DNA from: a virus
Lineage: Duplodnaviria; Heunggongvirae; Uroviricota; Caudoviricetes
Length of the DNA: 42,169 nt
Strand: one strand, 5' to 3'
IMG/VR virus record: IMGVR_UViG_2541047917_000006
Location: 1 to 42,169 of that record
This document shows, one piece after another, positions 3,373-10,058 of this stretch. How positions within the stretch are numbered: the stretch's first letter is position 1; each line of letters starts with the position of its first letter. Position numbers and translations under genes: made by a program. The notes under the pieces were generated by a model. That model was not told the DNA's origin and ran no database searches. It saw only the letters and a list, made by a program, of their open reading frames with translations.

Positions 3373-3899
3373 CGTGCTGCCCCCTCTTTGGTGAAAATGC
3401 CTGCTGCAATGCTGTTTATGATGCTGTCAGTGCATGGAGTAGAAAGCTGGGCATCTCCAGCAATTTTCATGACCTCAACATCCGCATATCGAATACCGAG
3501 GTGTATCAGACCGGCTATACCTGACTTAAGTCGAACATTTTCCATAAACAGATCTTTTTCCCGCTGTTTAGCGGCTTCCAACTCCATCGACAATTTTTCC
3601 AACTGCTCTTTATGCTTCTTGTATTCCTGATACGCGTGCCAAGACTGACCTTTGCGCACACTATCAGTGATATCAGCAACCTGCTCCGGTGTTAGCGTGG
3701 TCAGTGGCTGTGCTGGAAAAATCATCACTTTCCCGGCATCCCAATCAAAACCCGCCTGAATTGACTGAACCTCAACTGATGGTGTTGAACCGATGCGACC
3801 AGGCGAATGAACAACGATCGTTACATCCATATCGCGACGATGGCTGTGGTTGTTGGACAAAATACGATTCACCAACTCAGAAAATTTGGAAAATTTCAT
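3369..3899 (-). CDS. Hypothetical protein, 176 aa
   Basis: Start reassigned to internal [10 protein letters not shown], whose ATG overlaps the upstream stop (ATGA); coiled-coil middle section. Confidence 0.6.
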
Positions 3900-4219
3900 G
3901 CTGATCCCTCTTTCTCTCCCCGGATAATTCTGTTGCACACATCCACACACTCGTCGCAGATGAAAACGGCGTCCCCAGCAATTAACTTTTTGACGGCGTA
4001 CTGGGATTTGTTGCAGAAGCTGCAACAAAGTGTTCGCCTGACTGATAAGGATGGAGCGCCAGATGTCAGCCGCTCCATATCGTTCTTGCGACGCAATATC
4101 ACACGGCTGAACTCAACCAGTTTCTCCGGGGATATCTCCTCCTCCGTAGCAAGCGCCTCTAATCGTTCGAGTATGTGGAAGGCTTTTTTCTGGGTAATTG
4201 CAGAATGCGATGTGGTCAT
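3896..4219 (-). CDS. ClpX-type C4 zinc-finger protein, 107 aa
   Basis: Start reassigned to MTTSHS, preceded by AAAGGAGAG. C-terminus [36 protein letters not shown] closely resembles the E. coli ClpX N-terminal zinc-binding domain (CSFCGKSQ...KLIAG...YICDECVDLCNDII). Confidence 0.75.
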
Positions 4220-4220
4220 C

Positions 4221-4709
4221 TCACTCTCCTTTGATGCGAATGCCAGCGGCGCGGGAATCATTCCATCGCTTTACTTCTTCACGAATTACGTCAATGCATT
4301 CTTTCGAATCCATTAGGTAATCTTCATCAAAAAGACGTTCCTGTTCGTTTTCTATCGCAACAATGATTGCTTCAACTAACTTTTGTGCCTGAGAATCACT
4401 TTCTAACTCTGCTATGCGCTTACTTCCATCCGAGATAACGCCCTCGTAATACTCACGCTGCTCGTTGAGTTTTGATTTTGCCAACTCCAGTTGTTTTGTT
4501 AGTTCCGCAATACGGCAAACATCGTTGATACGCGTTTCCTCTAATGCGTTGATCTCATCCAACAATGCCAGCGCGATATCTGGCGAAAAGTGCTTCATAA
4601 AATCGTTAAGCGCATTAATTCGCTGATCGAAAGGCATTACAGGTGCTTCACCAGCAATTTTTGTTTTTTCAGCGATTTCACGAAGCTTTTGATAATCAAT
4701 CTTGCTCAC
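4221..4709 (-). CDS. Hypothetical coiled-coil protein, 162 aa
   Basis: GTG start (VSKIDYQKL) six nt after AAGGAGG; the GTG overlaps the upstream TGA stop. Confidence 0.6.
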
Positions 4710-5251: not shown

Positions 5252-5445
5252 TTCTTCCCACTCCGCCACATCGCATTCAGATATTTGTTTTGATTCACTG
5301 ATGGAAAAGAATTTCTCTTAAGTAATTCCTCTCTCGATGGCATTGGCTTTACGCGTTGGCGAATAATCATTTCTGCCGGAAGAATGCCGGGATTGTATGC
5401 AAGTCCTCTCATGGTAAATTCCTCAGTCATTACTGGTAGCGCCAT
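5248..5445 (-). CDS. Hypothetical small protein (start uncertain, 54-65 aa)
   Basis: ORF bridging two coupled genes; possible internal start MRGLAYNPG after GAGGAA. Confidence 0.35.
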
Positions 5446-5719
5446 AGCGTGAGCGGTAATTACGCAGGCGCGGGTCGATATATTCAGGGAGTTTGTCTAT
5501 TGTCGCTTTTCGCAACGGTCTCATTGCTGTTTCGTTTGTTCGGTCCTTCTCCTGTTTTAGCGCGAGTTGTATATCGCGTCGGTACATCCGTTCTGCTTTT
5601 GTTTCTGGTGTCAGAGCAAGAAACGCGTCGAAATTGTTTTTGATATTCTCCAGCACCTCCGCCTTGGAGCTACCGGAGCAGTTGCGCGGGTCATCCGCAC
5701 CATACAGAGGCGCTGGCAT
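5423..5719 (-). CDS. Hypothetical protein, 98 aa
   Basis: ORF immediately downstream of the ssb-like gene; no family recognised. Confidence 0.5.
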
Positions 5720-5742: not shown

Positions 5743-6126
5743 TCAGAATGGGATGGAATCGTCGTATTCAGGATTATTTTGATGATTGCTACTTTGCTGC
5801 TGTTGGCTGTTTCCTGAAGTTGCAAATCCAATCTTTGCATTCAGTAATTCAAGAGTGATTGATTGACCATTTTGCTCCTGATAAACATCAACCCTGATGT
5901 TTTCTCCGGTAATTTCCACAATGCAACCTTCAACAAGAACACTACGGTAGTAATCCACTTGCGCTCCCGGCTTGGCAAATACAACGGCGCTGTAGTTTGT
6001 CCATTCTTTCTTTTTTGTCTGGCGATCGTAATACTGAACGCCAGCACGGATGTTGAATCCGATATTTTCACCGGCCTGAAACTCTCTTGCAGGCTTGTTT
6101 AGTCTTACAGTAATCGAATGGGCCAT
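5743..6126 (-). CDS. SSB-like single-strand DNA-binding protein, 127 aa
   Basis: Start reassigned to MAHSITV (TAATG overlap with erf stop). C-terminal Gln/Asn-rich linker ending DDSIPF, the acidic SSB tip motif (E. coli SSB ends DDDIPF). Confidence 0.7.
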   Translation of the reverse strand: MAHSITVRLNKPAREFQAGENIGFNIRAGVQYYDRQTKKKEWTNYSAVVFAKPGAQVDYYRSVLVEGCIVEITGENIRVDVYQEQNGQSITLELLNAKIGFATSGNSQQQQSSNHQNNPEYDDSIPF

Positions 6127-6731
6127 TAAGCAGCCGCTCCTTCTAATTCGTCTCGTCTGATGTTGTAAACGTCCTGCGCTTTGTGCTGCTCCGGTGTGCC
6201 TTCGAGCATCTTCCACGCTTTGGCGAACGCCTGTTTAAGCTCTTCTACGGTGTTTTTCTGCATTGCTGCGTCAGTGAATGCTTTTAGAACCTGTTCAGGT
6301 GTAGGTGATGGTTTTGATTGCTTTACTGCTGCGTTCTGCTGATGTTTATGCTCGTCTGTATCTGCATCTTTCGCATCATCAATGCCGAACAAACCATTGA
6401 GGCAATACTTGCGTGCATAAGAGCTTGTAGCTCCCGTAACTTGTGCAGAATCCATTCCTTTCTTGCTTTCTTCCTCTCGTGCAAGAGCGGTTGCCGTATG
6501 ACTGTTTTCGCCATCGGTAATAGTTGCCGTGGCTTTCACGTAATACCGATCACCAATCAACACAACTTCATCGCTGATTGACAAAAACAGACCATTCAGT
6601 AACGGCTTAACGCCTTCAAGAATGTCTTCGCAGCTTCTGTATTTATATTTACCGAATGAGTTGTACTGATTCTTGGGCGCGTTCAGATTTTCCTGAATGG
6701 CTGCCAGTCTTGCATAAAATTCTTTGCTCAT
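6126..6731 (-). CDS. erf: Erf single-strand annealing recombinase
   Basis: Start reassigned to MSKEFYARLAAIQENLNAPKNQYNSFGKYKYRSCEDILEGVKPLL, which matches P22 Erf as I recall it. Confidence 0.9.
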   Translation of the reverse strand: MSKEFYARLAAIQENLNAPKNQYNSFGKYKYRSCEDILEGVKPLLNGLFLSISDEVVLIGDRYYVKATATITDGENSHTATALAREEESKKGMDSAQVTGATSSYARKYCLNGLFGIDDAKDADTDEHKHQQNAAVKQSKPSPTPEQVLKAFTDAAMQKNTVEELKQAFAKAWKMLEGTPEQHKAQDVYNIRRDELEGAAA

Positions 6732-6832
6732 ATGTTTGTTCTCAGAATGGACATTCCCCAAGGAAATAACGCTGATTTAATACTTCGACTCGGGACAAAT
6801 TAAGGCATACCCGCATTCCTTCGCGGTCACCA

Positions 6833-6991
6833 TTATGGCGATACCAGAGAGCTTTCTGCGTGTACATGCGTCTCTGTAACTTGCTCTCCTTCACTGTGGT
6901 TGCAAGTGACATGCATATCTCCTTCGTTACCGATTAATTCTTTCATCTGACGAATGAATTCTTCGTCTGACCAGTTATCTGTAAAACTCAT
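6833..6991 (-). CDS. Hypothetical small protein, 52 aa, in the kil position
   Basis: Start MSFTDNW with ATG overlapping the cIII-like stop (ATGA); function unknown. Confidence 0.45.
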   Translation of the reverse strand: MSFTDNWSDEEFIRQMKELIGNEGDMHVTCNHSEGEQVTETHVHAESSLVSP

Positions 6992-7158
6992 GGACGGCCT
7001 TGTTGTTTCAAAATATCCCAAAGCTTTTCGAGCAAACTTTTCATTCTTGGTTGTTTAAAGTCTGCTCCGGTTAAAATATTTTTTCGTGAATGCTGTACCG
7101 ATAAAATCGGGTTGAAAGGGCGAACCGATGCCGCCCCTGCAATAGCGAACTGTTGCAT
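6988..7158 (-). CDS. cIII: CIII-like FtsH inhibitor, 56 aa
   Basis: Start reassigned to MQQFAIAG six nt after AAGGAG; N-terminal MQ.AIAG and central SLLEKLWDIL...QQGRP resemble lambda CIII (MQYAIAGW...ESLLERI...LNQPGVP). Confidence 0.7.
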   Translation of the reverse strand: MQQFAIAGAASVRPFNPILSVQHSRKNILTGADFKQPRMKSLLEKLWDILKQQGRP

Positions 7159-7359
7159 AGGATGCTCCTTCTGTTTGATTGCATAACGAAAACGCCTCGA
7201 ATGAAGCGTTATTGGTATGCATATAAAAAGGCCCTCACACTGGAGGGCAAAGAAGATTTCCAATAATCAGAACAAGTCGGCTCCTGTTTAGTTACGAGCG
7301 ACATTGCTCCGTGTATTCACTCGTTGGAATGAATACACAGTGCTGTGTTTATTCTGTTG

Positions 7360-7395
7360 TTTATGCCAAAAATAAAGGCCGACTATGCGGCCTCG
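7360..7395 (-). terminator. Hairpin plus T-run at the 3-prime end of the 207-aa gene
   Basis: Inverted repeat aggccg...cggcct overlapping the stop codon, followed on the minus strand by a T-rich run; approximate coordinates. Confidence 0.4.
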
Positions 7396-8006
7396 GAAGG
7401 AAGTCCAATCATCTTATTCAAATCTTCTACCCGTAAAGCAGGAAGTGCTGTACTTGCTTTATCTGCTTCTTTTGGTAGTAACTCTTTGCTTTCAGGCCAA
7501 ACTTCAATAAGTCGCTTAACTGTTGTGACTGAGTTCAAAGCAGCCCATACATTTGATTCGATATCCTTTTTCTTGGCTTCAAGTTTTTTTTGCAATGCGC
7601 AGATTTCATCAAACCTTTTTGTTATTTCGTGTTCTGCGTCAAACATGCATTTATCTTTTTCTGGGGTGGGGAGCAATATATCTTCACCGTTGCCGCCTTT
7701 TCCGTATGAATGCCAGCCAACCCTTCTTCCAGATACAGTCAGATAAATCGAAGCAGAACGAACATCGTATGAGTAAAGTGAACATCCCATCTTTTCAAGT
7801 TCTTCACTTATAGCTGCCAACTTGGATGATAACTGATCCACTTCCTCAGTTTTCTTTTTACCGCCAAACGCAATAACTCTGGCGTCAAGTGCAAGCTGGT
7901 TCTTTAACTTTGTTACTTCTTCAAGTTCAGTGAAAACCCCAGACTTAATTAAAGCGTTACGAGCAATTTCCTCTTTCATTCTCGTAGTTAAGCGGATTGA
8001 TGACAT
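7383..8006 (-). CDS. Hypothetical protein, 207 aa, at the sieB/exclusion position
   Basis: Start reassigned to MSSIRLTTRMKEEI after GAGAGGAA; soluble, coiled-coil rich, no family recognised; sits between ral and cIII. Confidence 0.65.
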   Translation of the reverse strand: MSSIRLTTRMKEEIARNALIKSGVFTELEEVTKLKNQLALDARVIAFGGKKKTEEVDQLSSKLAAISEELEKMGCSLYSYDVRSASIYLTVSGRRVGWHSYGKGGNGEDILLPTPEKDKCMFDAEHEITKRFDEICALQKKLEAKKKDIESNVWAALNSVTTVKRLIEVWPESKELLPKEADKASTALPALRVEDLNKMIGLPSEAA

Positions 8007-8042
8007 ATTAATTCCTCTCAAATAAGAAAATAAAGGCCACCA

Positions 8043-8243
8043 TCAGGCAGCCTTGTTATTCTGTTTACCAAGTTCTCTGGCAATCATTGCCGTCGTTCGT
8101 ATTGCCCATTTATCGACATATTTCCCATCTTCCATTACAGGAAACATTTCTTCAGGCTTAACCATGCATTCCGATTGCAGCTTGCATCCATTGCATCGCT
8201 TGAATTGTCCACACCATTGATTTTTATCAATAGTCGTAGTCAT
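8043..8243 (-). CDS. ral: Restriction alleviation protein Ral
   Basis: 66-aa ORF MTTTIDKNQWCGQFKRCNGCKLQSECMVKPEEMF..., matches lambda Ral as I recall it. Confidence 0.85.
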   Translation of the reverse strand: MTTTIDKNQWCGQFKRCNGCKLQSECMVKPEEMFPVMEDGKYVDKWAIRTTAMIARELGKQNNKAA

Positions 8244-8313
8244 ACGGATAGTCCTGGTATTGTTCCATCACATCCTGAGGATGCTCTTCGAACTCTTCAA
8301 ATTCTTCTTCCAT
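8227..8313 (-). CDS. Candidate 28-aa highly acidic peptide (MEEEFEEFEEHPQDVMEQYQDYPYDYDY)
   Basis: ATG five nt after GAGGTGA; overlaps the ral start in another frame; below the ORF-track size cutoff. Confidence 0.25.
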   Translation of the reverse strand: MEEEFEEFEEHPQDVMEQYQDYPYDYDY

Positions 8314-8423
8314 ATATCACCTCAAATAAGTGGTTTGCTGCCTAATTTCATTTTCTGGCGACCAACACAAGTCACACCCATTTCACTGCGTGGCTTGCGG
8401 TAGTAAATTAGGTTTGTTCAGAC

Positions 8424-8447
8424 AATAAAAAACCCACCGAAGTGGGC
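8424..8447 (-). terminator. Rho-independent terminator (tL1-like)
   Basis: Hairpin cccac-cgaa-gtggg followed on the minus strand by a T-run, immediately after the stop of the 114-aa gene. Confidence 0.55.
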
Positions 8448-8791
8448 TATGACCATTTTTTATTTGGATTTCGTTGGTGAGCGTGATTAACAACTCTGTG
8501 CATTACATCCTCATATTTTTCATCTTCAATTTTTTCGACATCGCGAGGAAATGGTGTTGCTAATGCTTTGTCAACTTTGTCCATTGGGTCTTCATTAATC
8601 TTATATTCAGGGCCATCATCTATAGCATTAAATCCAGGTGTTACACCGTTTTTTAATGCATATGCTATCCTTTTTTCCCATCTCGCTATTCTCCTCCTGT
8701 CTCGAGATGTAAGACCTCTATCAGATACTTTTCTGTTTTGTCCGCGGTCAGGATTAACATAAATAGTCTTTTTCACCATAAGCATACTCAA
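8447..8791 (-). CDS. Hypothetical Arg-rich protein, 114 aa, low-GC
   Basis: ORF directly downstream of N and coupled to it (TTG or internal ATG/GTG start); AT-rich codon usage unlike its neighbours. Confidence 0.5.
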   Translation of the reverse strand: MSMLMVKKTIYVNPDRGQNRKVSDRGLTSRDRRRIARWEKRIAYALKNGVTPGFNAIDDGPEYKINEDPMDKVDKALATPFPRDVEKIEDEKYEDVMHRVVNHAHQRNPNKKWS

Positions 8792-9093
8792 TAAGCACCG
8801 TACGGTAGTTTACTGTACAATTTTATTTTTTGGACTGCATGTATTTTGTTTCCTAATGGGTTTGAATCTTTGTAATAAATACTTCTATTTTTTCGAACGA
8901 CTTCTTCTTTCTTCTTGCAGCAAAGGCTTCCTAGCGATGCTGCTTTGTCTGCTCTGACGCAACCAGAGAGCTTTAGCGCAATTTTTCGCGCCAGTGCTTC
9001 ATTACTGCGTCGCTCGGCAATAAGTTCTGCTCTGCGAGCTTTGTAGCGGCTTTTTGCCGTACCTTTGGATTCTTTCCAGACAGTGGTTACCAT
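8788..9093 (-). CDS. N: Antiterminator N, phage 21 type
   Basis: Start reassigned to MVTTVWKESKGTAKSRYKARRAELIAERRSNEALARKIALKLSG after AGGAGA; arginine-rich N-terminus matches phage 21 N as I recall it. Confidence 0.85.
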   Translation of the reverse strand: MVTTVWKESKGTAKSRYKARRAELIAERRSNEALARKIALKLSGCVRADKAASLGSLCCKKKEEVVRKNRSIYYKDSNPLGNKIHAVQKIKLYSKLPYGAY

Positions 9094-9203
9094 GATGGTC
9101 TCCTTTAAGTGGCTTTGGCGCATGACGCGTCGAGGTGCTTATCTTCTCGATCGCTGTCTTGCAGCTGCAATTCGCGCCATCCCCAAAACCACTCAAGTTC
9201 TGG

Positions 9204-9243
9204 TCTCAACGGTTAGGTTGAGAGTCCGTCGATGTTAAAGAGC
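9204..9243 (-). promoter_or_regulatory. nutL (boxA plus boxB)
   Basis: Minus-strand boxA GCTCTTTAA and boxB hairpin TCTCAAC-CTAACC-GTTGAGA between pL and N; approximate coordinates. Confidence 0.6.
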
Positions 9244-9284
9244 CTGCCAATCTGTTCCGTTTGGCTTCCAGCGTCCTGCTGATG

Positions 9285-9320
9285 GCTTAAATTTAAGACT
9301 TCTTAATTTATTGGTCAAGT
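9285..9320 (-). promoter_or_regulatory. oL operators and pL promoter region
   Basis: P22-type operator half-sites (ATTTAAGA...TCTTAAAT) and a minus-strand TTGACC -35 element; approximate. Confidence 0.5.
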
Positions 9321-9388
9321 GCATTTTTGAAGAAAACTTAATTTTATGGGCGTGAATTTAGTTTGTCTTTGATTTTTAACGGGAAATA

Positions 9389-9408
9389 AAAAAGGGGCGA
9401 AAGCCCCT
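9389..9408 (-). terminator. Terminator after c2
   Basis: GGGGC-GAAA-GCCCC hairpin with flanking A/T runs immediately after the c2 stop. Confidence 0.6.
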
Positions 9409-10058
9409 TAAGGAAGGTTTGCTAGCTTGGCATCAACGACAACGCCAATGATTTTACAGTTCCCATTGATTTCAATCATTGGGTATTGTGGATTGAGTGG
9501 TTTCAGGAATTTTCTACCGGCATCAATAACTAACTTTTTGAATGTCGCCTCGTTTTCTCCTTCAAGTTTGGCGACTACCAACTTTCCATTACGTGGTTCG
9601 ACTTCTGGGTCGACGAGAATAATCATCCCCTCAGGAATACTCAGTCCTGCCGGGGCAGTCATTGAATCGCCTTTAACGTCGAGCCAAAAAGAGTCTTCAG
9701 AACAATCTACCGTTGTGTCGTACCAGTTATCTATTGCACGCCTATGATATGGCTCTACAGCTTCCATCCAACATCCTGCGCTTACCCAACTAATTAGAGG
9801 ATACGAACCTCTTGGATCATGCCTGCTGTGATAGGCAATGTTTGAAAGACTATCCTCTCCTTTCAACAGGTAATCAGGGGAGCACTGCAAAGCCTTGGCT
9901 AAGGCCAATAGGTTTTCGCCATTGGGCTCAGTTTCAGATCGCTCCCATTGGGAAATAGCAACATTAGACACGCCAACCATCTTGCCAAGGGCAGCCTGCC
10001 TAATCTTGAGTTCTTTTCTGCGAGCGCGAATACGCTCACCCATCAGTTGTGTATTCAT
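9408..10058 (-). CDS. c2: Prophage repressor C2 (CI-type, LexA-like S24 autopeptidase)
   Basis: 216-aa ORF MNTQLMGERIRARRKELKIRQAALGKMVGVSNVAISQWERSETEPNGENLLALAKALQ...; matches P22 C2 as I recall it. Confidence 0.95.
   Translation of the reverse strand: MNTQLMGERIRARRKELKIRQAALGKMVGVSNVAISQWERSETEPNGENLLALAKALQCSPDYLLKGEDSLSNIAYHSRHDPRGSYPLISWVSAGCWMEAVEPYHRRAIDNWYDTTVDCSEDSFWLDVKGDSMTAPAGLSIPEGMIILVDPEVEPRNGKLVVAKLEGENEATFKKLVIDAGRKFLKPLNPQYPMIEINGNCKIIGVVVDAKLANLP

Follow-up and report, generated by a model that had tools for sequence, protein, structure and literature searches.

An Nmad5-family gene carried as a discrete cassette in the early-left operon of a lambdoid phage genome

The phage protein family Nmad5 (nucleotide modification associated domain 5, PF18757) owes its functional label to gene neighbourhoods in other phages. 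In Yuavirus SN1, the nmad5 gene lies inside a thymidine hypermodification cluster, between aGPT-Pplase1 and dUMP hydroxymethylase. The sole experiments on the family that we found were done with Dhillonvirus phages and tie it to the Tmn defence system: the Nmad5 substitutions K216E (phage SM_A8) and K296E (phage SM_S22) conferred escape from Tmn, reverting the mutation brought Tmn sensitivity back, deletion of nmad5 was viable, and the wild-type gene was not clonable and apparently toxic (PMC11846954). A 2026 preprint reports that Tmn recognises RIIB of phage T2, apparently without mention of Nmad5, a term absent from a full-text search. The anti-Tmn protein ORF35 of SM_S22 is described with a different architecture and was set aside as a relative. 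Here we describe an Nmad5 gene in a viral DNA of 42,169 nucleotides (IMG/VR record IMGVR_UViG_2541047917_000006, positions 1 to 42,169), which we call the window.

An initial annotation of the window had reported a 207-aa gene of no recognised family at positions 7383-8006, between ral and cIII, and had proposed an independently regulated exclusion or anti-defence module. We find that the gene is a member of Nmad5 and that neighbourhoods of the kind that gave the family its label are absent here. The family is already catalogued and the gene already named in RefSeq, and the finding is mostly a correction. As for function, we consider it plausible, if somewhat short of probable, that the product is a partner-binding accessory protein in phage-host conflict, possibly acting in counter-defence.

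A conserved gene of the Nmad5 family

The 207-codon open reading frame (ORF) on the minus strand was borne out by our analysis (Table 1). It is real and conserved under purifying selection: the ratio of non-synonymous to synonymous substitution rates (dN/dS) was ~0.27 for 65 distinct alleles from 80 related prophages and the window, and 79 of the 80 related copies were free of internal stop codons. The start codon is the ATG at 8006, which is preceded by GAGAGG (8019-8014) and by an AGGA that ends 6 nt upstream, and homologues uniformly begin with M-S/T-x-x-R-L-T, corresponding to this start. A longer version from a TTG at 8021, given by the ORF lister, was rejected because this codon lies inside the T-run of the upstream terminator and because homologues begin at the equivalent of 8006.

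The protein matched the Pfam family PF18757 with E=7.8e-71 and 238.8 bits (gathering cutoff 27), residues 4-203 aligning with model positions 1-206 of 206, and it matched PHROG 1965 ('unknown function') with E=8e-83. Nmad5 was its sole significant Pfam match. By score, full model coverage, single-domain length and conserved residues, the protein thus classifies as a full-length phage Nmad5 protein with a single domain, and the earlier statement that it belongs to no recognisable family does not hold. An identical protein is named 'Nmad5 family putative nucleotide modification protein' in RefSeq (WP_021566238.1), and a copy in an E. coli chromosome with 100% nucleotide identity carries that annotation. 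Genes of 95-96% identity in phages mEp235, HK542 and PhiR12 and in Stx-converting phages are annotated as 'hypothetical protein'. The gene is present in 211 of 5426 complete E. coli genomes (3.9%).

A profile search yielded 2272 representatives of 50%-identity clusters (E<=1e-3). Nearly all top matches listed were 190-220 aa long, and among 120 homologues listed no domain fusion occurred, PF18757 being the sole domain. The family is found in Dhillonvirus, N4-like and Yuavirus phages. To our knowledge, these phages are virulent and do not form lysogens. Searches with the window protein gave no matches in NCBIfam or PADLOC, and literature on mEp235, PhiR12 and PF18757 turned up nothing functional. 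The 'NMAD' domain of a validated DefensePredictor system is Nmad2 and not Nmad5.

As initially annotated, the protein is predicted to be soluble; it is also near neutral, with a Kyte-Doolittle 19-residue maximum of 0.61, a grand average of hydropathy of -0.37 and an isoelectric point of 6.8, and its hydropathy profile contains no membrane or hydrophobic segment. We also considered a DNA mimic; the isoelectric point speaks against it.

Predicted structure and possible role

An AlphaFold2 model computed from 145 sequences (predicted local distance difference test, pLDDT, 92.1; predicted template modelling score 0.83) is mostly helical. It comprises helices at residues 8-22, 24-47 and 50-72, a beta insert at ~73-126 and a long helix at 127-158; small helices and a packed tail make up the C-terminus. 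Judged by the order of these elements, the four long helices probably form a four-helix bundle. The description of the protein as rich in coiled coils could not be upheld, as the model shows four long helices and a beta insert and all coiled-coil Pfam matches were insignificant.

In an alignment of 146 sequences with a median identity of 30%, the conserved positions were R5, R43, G48-G49, G93, T162, L166, W170-P171-E172, L176, P178, L196-N197 and G201-L202-P203, each 83-100% conserved and all found in the window protein, together with I14, A18, G23, E175 and L188-P189. The alignment of 145 sequences gave nearly the same set. Conservation of polar residues in the larger alignment was limited to two Arg, two Glu, one Asn and one Thr, and no His, Cys, Asp, Lys, Ser or Tyr was conserved, which favours a binding surface over an active site. 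From the helix topology, nearly all conserved residues would lie at one end of the bundle, where the N-terminus, the turn between helices 2 and 3 and the C-terminal subdomain meet. The residues placed there are R5, R43, the G48-G49 turn, T162, K164-R165, L166, W170-P171-E172, E175, P178, L196-N197 and G201-L202-P203.

A fold search found no similar solved or predicted structure outside the Nmad5 family; it was run with a first AlphaFold2 model, whose secondary structure is nearly identical to that of the model with pLDDT 92.1. Profiles of 21 or 145 Nmad5 sequences matched no PDB sequence. Neither a fold match nor a domain fusion nor a catalytic signature reveals a mechanism for the biochemical activity of the protein.

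The conserved end of the bundle would contain the position that is mutated in Dhillonvirus escape phages. The mutated residue, the second lysine of T-D-K-K-L-I-K-A-W-P-E, corresponds in the alignment to R165 in the window sequence T-V-K-R-L-I-E-V-W-P-E. The sequence T-x-K-[KR]-L-I-x-x-W-P-E is the most conserved motif of the family, and the escape mutation is a charge reversal within it.

The gene is dispensable, as indicated by the viable Dhillonvirus deletion and by an interrupted copy in the Stx2a phage LC616075. In the latter, a 1310-bp insertion, accompanied by a 4-bp duplication, splits the gene after approximately codon 35 (locus L093, 1696-3004; equivalent to window 7900-7903); it looks like an insertion sequence element that left a pseudogene. 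In total, 48 Stx2a-converting records match the gene, and the match is truncated in the same way in all five of those listed.

In the reading that we prefer, the Nmad5 protein would be a dispensable accessory and not a core component of replication, recombination or morphogenesis. It would act by binding a partner, not by catalysis, through the conserved surface at the end of the bundle, and this surface would engage a host or phage component that is watched by host immunity, so that the defence is evaded or blunted. A broader proposal, in which orphan Nmad5 proteins form a widespread counter-defence or defence-sensed class whose surface (K164-R165 and W170-P171-E172) contacts a component of host immunity (for instance, a Tmn-like membrane NTPase or whatever triggers it), has in our view only a modest chance of being right; if it were true, the 'nucleotide modification' label would have arisen incidentally from the location of some copies.

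Several points weigh against the preferred reading. The clustering of conserved residues was deduced from helix topology, and two conserved Arg and two conserved Glu at one end could constitute a small active site or bind a nucleotide or metal. Counter-defence by this protein is speculative and is argued from a Dhillonvirus homologue, whose deletion made the phage no more sensitive and gave no escape from Tmn (PMC11846954); the link to Tmn may thus reflect a function gained by the mutant that has nothing to do with what the protein normally does. Many family members lie inside replication/recombination operons or beside nucleotide-metabolism genes, which fits a role in DNA metabolism equally well. 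Finally, the gene might be expressed in the lysogen, given that promoter scans miss weak or activated promoters.

Nmad5 could instead be a replication or recombination accessory that assists or protects phage DNA metabolism, e.g. by modulating a nuclease, helicase or single-strand-binding function of the host on replication or recombination intermediates, and that has no dedicated anti-immune role. Homologues in early replication/recombination operons are consistent with this: they are found beside Sak4-type AAA_24 and DUF669 genes, between a DUF2800 nuclease and DNA polymerase A, ahead of an Rv2179c-like exonuclease and DNA polymerase A, after an SNF2 helicase near AAA_24 and SSB genes, near RecE and a replication initiator, and elsewhere after a helicase/primase. 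A further copy, in an N4-like Salmonella phage, lies between ThyX and primase. The window gene, too, is upstream of kil, erf, ssb and abc2. However, the family co-occurs with every recombinase type seen (Erf, Rad52-like, RecT and Bet) and shows no evident fixed partner, it is dispensable and patchily distributed (the 3.9% of E. coli genomes given above), and the model bears no likeness to known recombination or replication folds. Moreover, other copies lie elsewhere: as opposite-strand inserts in head or tail modules (Dhillonvirus and one metagenomic phage) or between terminase and portal (phage ZRG1 and a similar metagenomic contig). Some copies directly precede lysis genes. We regard a role in DNA metabolism as possible, with rather more speaking for doubt than for acceptance. 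An inhibitor of RecBCD was also considered and is unlikely, as Nmad5 co-occurs with Abc2 in the window and with Gam-type modules in other genomes.

Pfam scans of 17 window ORFs from the early-left and nin regions revealed no modification enzymes, that is, no hydroxymethylase, DNA kinase, pyrophosphorylase, glycosyltransferase or methyltransferase, which makes the window gene an orphan Nmad5. Likewise, no modification partners but only small accessory genes surround it in 80 close relatives. These results argue against the idea that Nmad5, perhaps in concert with enzymes of the host, contributes to placing a nucleotide modification on phage DNA or to directing it to its target. This idea can draw on the cluster of Yuavirus SN1, on the NCBI family name 'putative nucleotide modification protein', and on other neighbours of family members: a ParB-N protein and S-adenosylmethionine (SAM) decarboxylase near the ZRG1 gene, MT-A70 with DUF4406, and a dGTP diphosphohydrolase-like protein with DUF4326. 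It is difficult to reconcile with a family that shows neither a catalytic signature nor a fusion to an enzymatic domain, and we know of no hypermodified lambdoid phage DNA. In this genome, the absent partner enzymes weigh most against it; we infer that Nmad5 is not part of a DNA base-modification pathway here, and we think an accessory role in modification unlikely.

As a separate observation, a metagenomic contig with a distant Nmad5 homologue (L096, 10401-10760) also encodes a dGTP diphosphohydrolase-like domain (PF18909) beside DNA polymerase A, which hints at a phage with a non-canonical base.

The cassette in the early-left operon

We compared the window with 80 IMG/VR prophage loci that encode a 94-98% identical Nmad5 protein. 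The gene is a discrete cassette of ~0.67 kb on the pL strand, consisting of a ribosome-binding site, the ORF and a terminator. In 70 of the 80 loci, homology with the window sets in at 8026, which is 20 nt upstream of the ATG, and the preceding DNA matches window positions 8321-8402, so that most relatives lack the 294-bp orf28-ral cassette (8027-8320); correspondingly, ral was absent from 70 of the 80 loci. The 10-mer CTTATTTGAG at the left joint recurs at 8330-8321, upstream of orf28-ral.

At its right end, the cassette closes with the hairpin and T-run that had been noted at the 3' end of the gene: a stem at 7394-7375 is followed by TTTATTTTT. Its fold of -11 kcal/mol (z = -1.35) is only modestly better than that of shuffled sequences. 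The 3' half of this hairpin, GGCCTTTATTTT (7366-7377), repeats the 3' half of the ral terminator (8027-8038), which is directly upstream of the Nmad5 ribosome-binding site. Right-hand homology breakpoints among the 80 loci cluster at 7353/7338, 7225/7221, 7165 and 7135. In lambda, the ral stop codon, the terminator hairpin GGCCTTTATTTT(T), GGCATAAA and an inverted repeat follow each other without a break. The window splits this run exactly after GGCCTTTATTTT, and the hairpin at the end of the cassette carries the same GGCCTTTATTTTT. By this alignment, the cassette is a precise insertion relative to lambda. The repeats at the joints, CTTATTTGAG at the 5' ends and GGCCTTTATTTT in the 3' terminators of both cassettes, look like micro-homologies for the exchange of early-left genes. 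The Nmad5 cassette is thus a clean example of gene shuffling in the lambdoid early-left region, with a 10-bp ribosome-binding-site repeat and a 12-bp terminator repeat as its joints.

Table 1. Features of the Nmad5 locus and its surroundings (window coordinates)
Feature	Position	Strand	Basis and remarks
Nmad5-family coding sequence, 207 aa	7383-8006	minus	ORF list and sequence; stop codon TAG 7385-7383; Pfam, PHROG, dN/dS
Left cassette junction and ribosome-binding site	8013-8026	minus	CTTATTTGAG (8026-8017), then AGGA (8016-8013)
Terminator-like hairpin and T-run of the Nmad5 gene	7366-7394	minus	GAGGCCG-CATAGT-CGGCCTT; overlaps the stop codon; right cassette end
Inverted repeat	7309-7343	minus	GTGTATTCA...TGAATACAC (7311-7338), extends to a 14-bp stem; backbone element
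Terminator-like hairpin at the ral end	8027-8054	minus	9 pairs (8054-8033), then T-run; -13.9 kcal/mol, z = -3.85; also after lambda ral
ral	8043-8243	minus	Pfam Ral, E=1.6e-48; upstream of the Nmad5 gene
orf28	8227-8313	minus	28 codons (MEEEFEEFEEHPQDVMEQYQDYPYDYDY); overlaps the ral start; corresponds to lambda orf28
orf28-ral cassette	8043-8313	minus	separate accessory cassette; orf28 and ral travel together
N antiterminator (8788-9093) and HK022-type Nun homologue (8447-8791)	8447-9093	minus	~99% DNA identity to annotated N and Nun of mEp235
Candidate pL region	9290-9369	minus	between repressor gene and N; two 9/12 sigma-70-like matches; placed by P22 and lambda annotations

The inverted repeat just beyond the gene, which had been counted with the proposed module, is real but belongs to the phage backbone. 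It folds with -23 kcal/mol (z = -7.1), none of 200 shuffled sequences folded as well, and the chance expectation of the pattern in the window was 0.00. It also occurs in 72 related loci and in lambda (NC_001416 34013-34040, between ral and ea10), which identifies it as a backbone element and not as a part of the Nmad5 cassette; in some loci the two are separated by 0.5-1.3 kb of other inserted genes. No T-run follows the repeat, and an Rfam search of positions 6900-9400 gave no match. It might be a processing site in the pL RNA, but this is no more than conjecture.

The surrounding operon runs leftward from the repressor gene (9408-10058) and the candidate pL through N, the nun homologue, orf28-ral and the Nmad5 gene to cIII, ORFs of the kil region, erf (6126-6761), an SSB-like ORF and abc2 (5423-5719). 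The Nmad5 gene shares its strand with N, nun, ral, cIII and erf, and its placement between ral and cIII was confirmed: the downstream cIII is of the HK022/HK97 type, both by its sequence and by 95-97% DNA identity to a stretch of mEp235 annotated as CIII. In the 80 related loci, ORF clustering identified the upstream neighbour as N in 52, as ral in nine and as nun in six. The downstream neighbours were highly diverse and included ea10, two types of cIII, a 354-aa coiled-coil protein, and proteins of 98, 104, 156 and 170 aa without assignment. One gene of this interval in one prophage bears the PGAP label 'superinfection exclusion protein'; we take it to belong to the 104-aa cluster, which resembles P22 gene 17.

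The sieB gene is not a resident of the ral-cIII interval of lambda and P22, as had been assumed. According to the lambda record, sieB is on the opposite strand between N and ral, and ea10 occupies the ral-cIII interval. The P22 record places sieB/esc between gene 24 and ral, again on the opposite strand and with its own annotated promoter, and the ral-c3 interval contains orf78, orf87 and gene 17, the last annotated as allowing growth on Fels-2 lysogens. The presence of gene 17 shows that this interval is able to carry pL-expressed counter-exclusion genes. Related genomes have nun, orf28-ral, ea10, a protein like that of P22 gene 17 and several small genes without assignment between N and cIII. 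The N-to-cIII stretch is therefore a multi-slot accessory region that collects conflict-related genes in lambdoid phages, which makes a role of the Nmad5 gene in phage-host or phage-phage conflict a fair prior.

In a consensus scan, the coding strand showed no sigma-70-like site at 8006-8440, and a laxer scan of 8006-8460 yielded a single 9/12 match (TTGATA-15-GACAAT) inside ral, with a poor 15-nt spacer; promoters that are weak or depend on an activator escape such scans. A terminator-like hairpin is found after each of nun, ral and the Nmad5 gene (at 8448-8431, 8054-8033 and 7394-7375, respectively), and two more precede cIII. The candidate pL would thus be the source of transcription of the Nmad5 gene, and N would be needed for read-through of the upstream terminators. 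The protein is probably an N-dependent delayed-early factor, made during lytic growth after N-mediated read-through from pL, and the gene would be off in the repressed prophage. The frequent occurrence of the family in Dhillonvirus, N4-like and Yuavirus phages likewise argues for a job in lytic growth.

The alternative closest to the initial annotation, a superinfection-exclusion or defence gene that is expressed from the prophage under its own regulation and protects the lysogen, is hard to reconcile with these data. No promoter of its own was found apart from the poor match in ral, a terminator lies directly upstream of the gene, and the protein lacks a membrane segment, has no PADLOC match and is not similar to SieB, gp17 or Ea10. 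Its supporters could point to the N-cIII stretch, where exclusion genes expressed in lysogens do occur (sieB in lambda and P22, nun here), and to the terminators that bracket the gene as they do in morons; in the case of a moron, the terminator is present and a consensus promoter was not found by scans that are blind to weak or activated ones. Furthermore, the gene is an opposite-strand insert among late genes in some virulent-type phages and can thus be an independent transcription unit. We judge this alternative the least likely of all and quite improbable, with the spread across phage types, the lack of a promoter and the lack of a membrane segment weighing most. Of the exclusion or anti-defence module originally suggested, the accessory slot and one tie of the family to defence, via Tmn, remain, whereas features of SieB were not found.

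Other parts of the window merit brief mention. N and an adjoining downstream homologue of the HK022-type Nun termination/exclusion factor are present in one operon, and mEp235 is arranged alike; HK022 has nun in place of N, so the presence of both is noteworthy. An early-left ORF (3896-4261, minus strand, 121 aa) has a C-terminal ClpX-type C4 zinc finger (Pfam zf-C4_ClpX, E=1.7e-15) and could be a phage mimic of the ClpX N-domain or a protein that targets it. The window begins with a leftward 357-aa ORF (1-1074), possibly an integrase gene, and a 712-aa ORF at 39709-41847 possibly encodes a tailspike; between them lie the early-left, immunity, replication and nin regions, Q, lysis and head genes. 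Overall, the window appears to be the genome of a lambdoid phage or prophage, complete or nearly so. At most 62% of its first 25 kb is covered by any complete E. coli genome, which makes it a new mosaic of known modules.

Comparison with described systems

Nmad5 comprises more than 2000 clusters at 50% identity in many phage types, and its function remains the question of interest. The isolated coliphages mEp235 and HK542 offer a usable system for the function of orphan Nmad5 proteins and for the generality of the Tmn link seen in Dhillonvirus.

In length, single-domain architecture and conserved motifs, the window protein equals the members catalogued as PF18757, PHROG 1965 and WP_021566238.1, with no structural difference. 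The Dhillonvirus proteins (SM_S22 CDS6 and SM_A8 CDS7) belong to the same Pfam family over the full model, with ~30% identity and the shared motif, and the gene is non-essential in both. They differ by an insertion of ~50 residues in the beta region and are encoded on the opposite strand inside the head module, whereas the window gene is part of the pL operon of a temperate phage. The Yuavirus (M6/SN1-type) protein is also of the same family (Pfam E=3.4e-33) and shares the conserved C-terminal motif. Its gene, in contrast, is found among genes for aGPT-Pplase, 5-hmdU DNA kinase, radical-SAM and PLP proteins and hydroxymethylase, none of which was found in the 17 window ORFs scanned.

SieB/Esc of lambda and P22 resembles the window gene in being encoded in the variable early-left part. 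It differs in its position between N/24 and ral, in its opposite orientation and, in P22, in having an annotated promoter of its own. The sequences do not match, and Nmad5 has no hydrophobic segment. Lambda Ea10 and P22 gp17 are closer in setting: like Nmad5, they are products of small, dispensable, pL-transcribed accessory genes of the ral-cIII interval. Neither has detectable homology to Nmad5 (hhalign probability 0.1% each), and ea10 and gene-17-like genes often adjoin the Nmad5 gene instead of replacing it.

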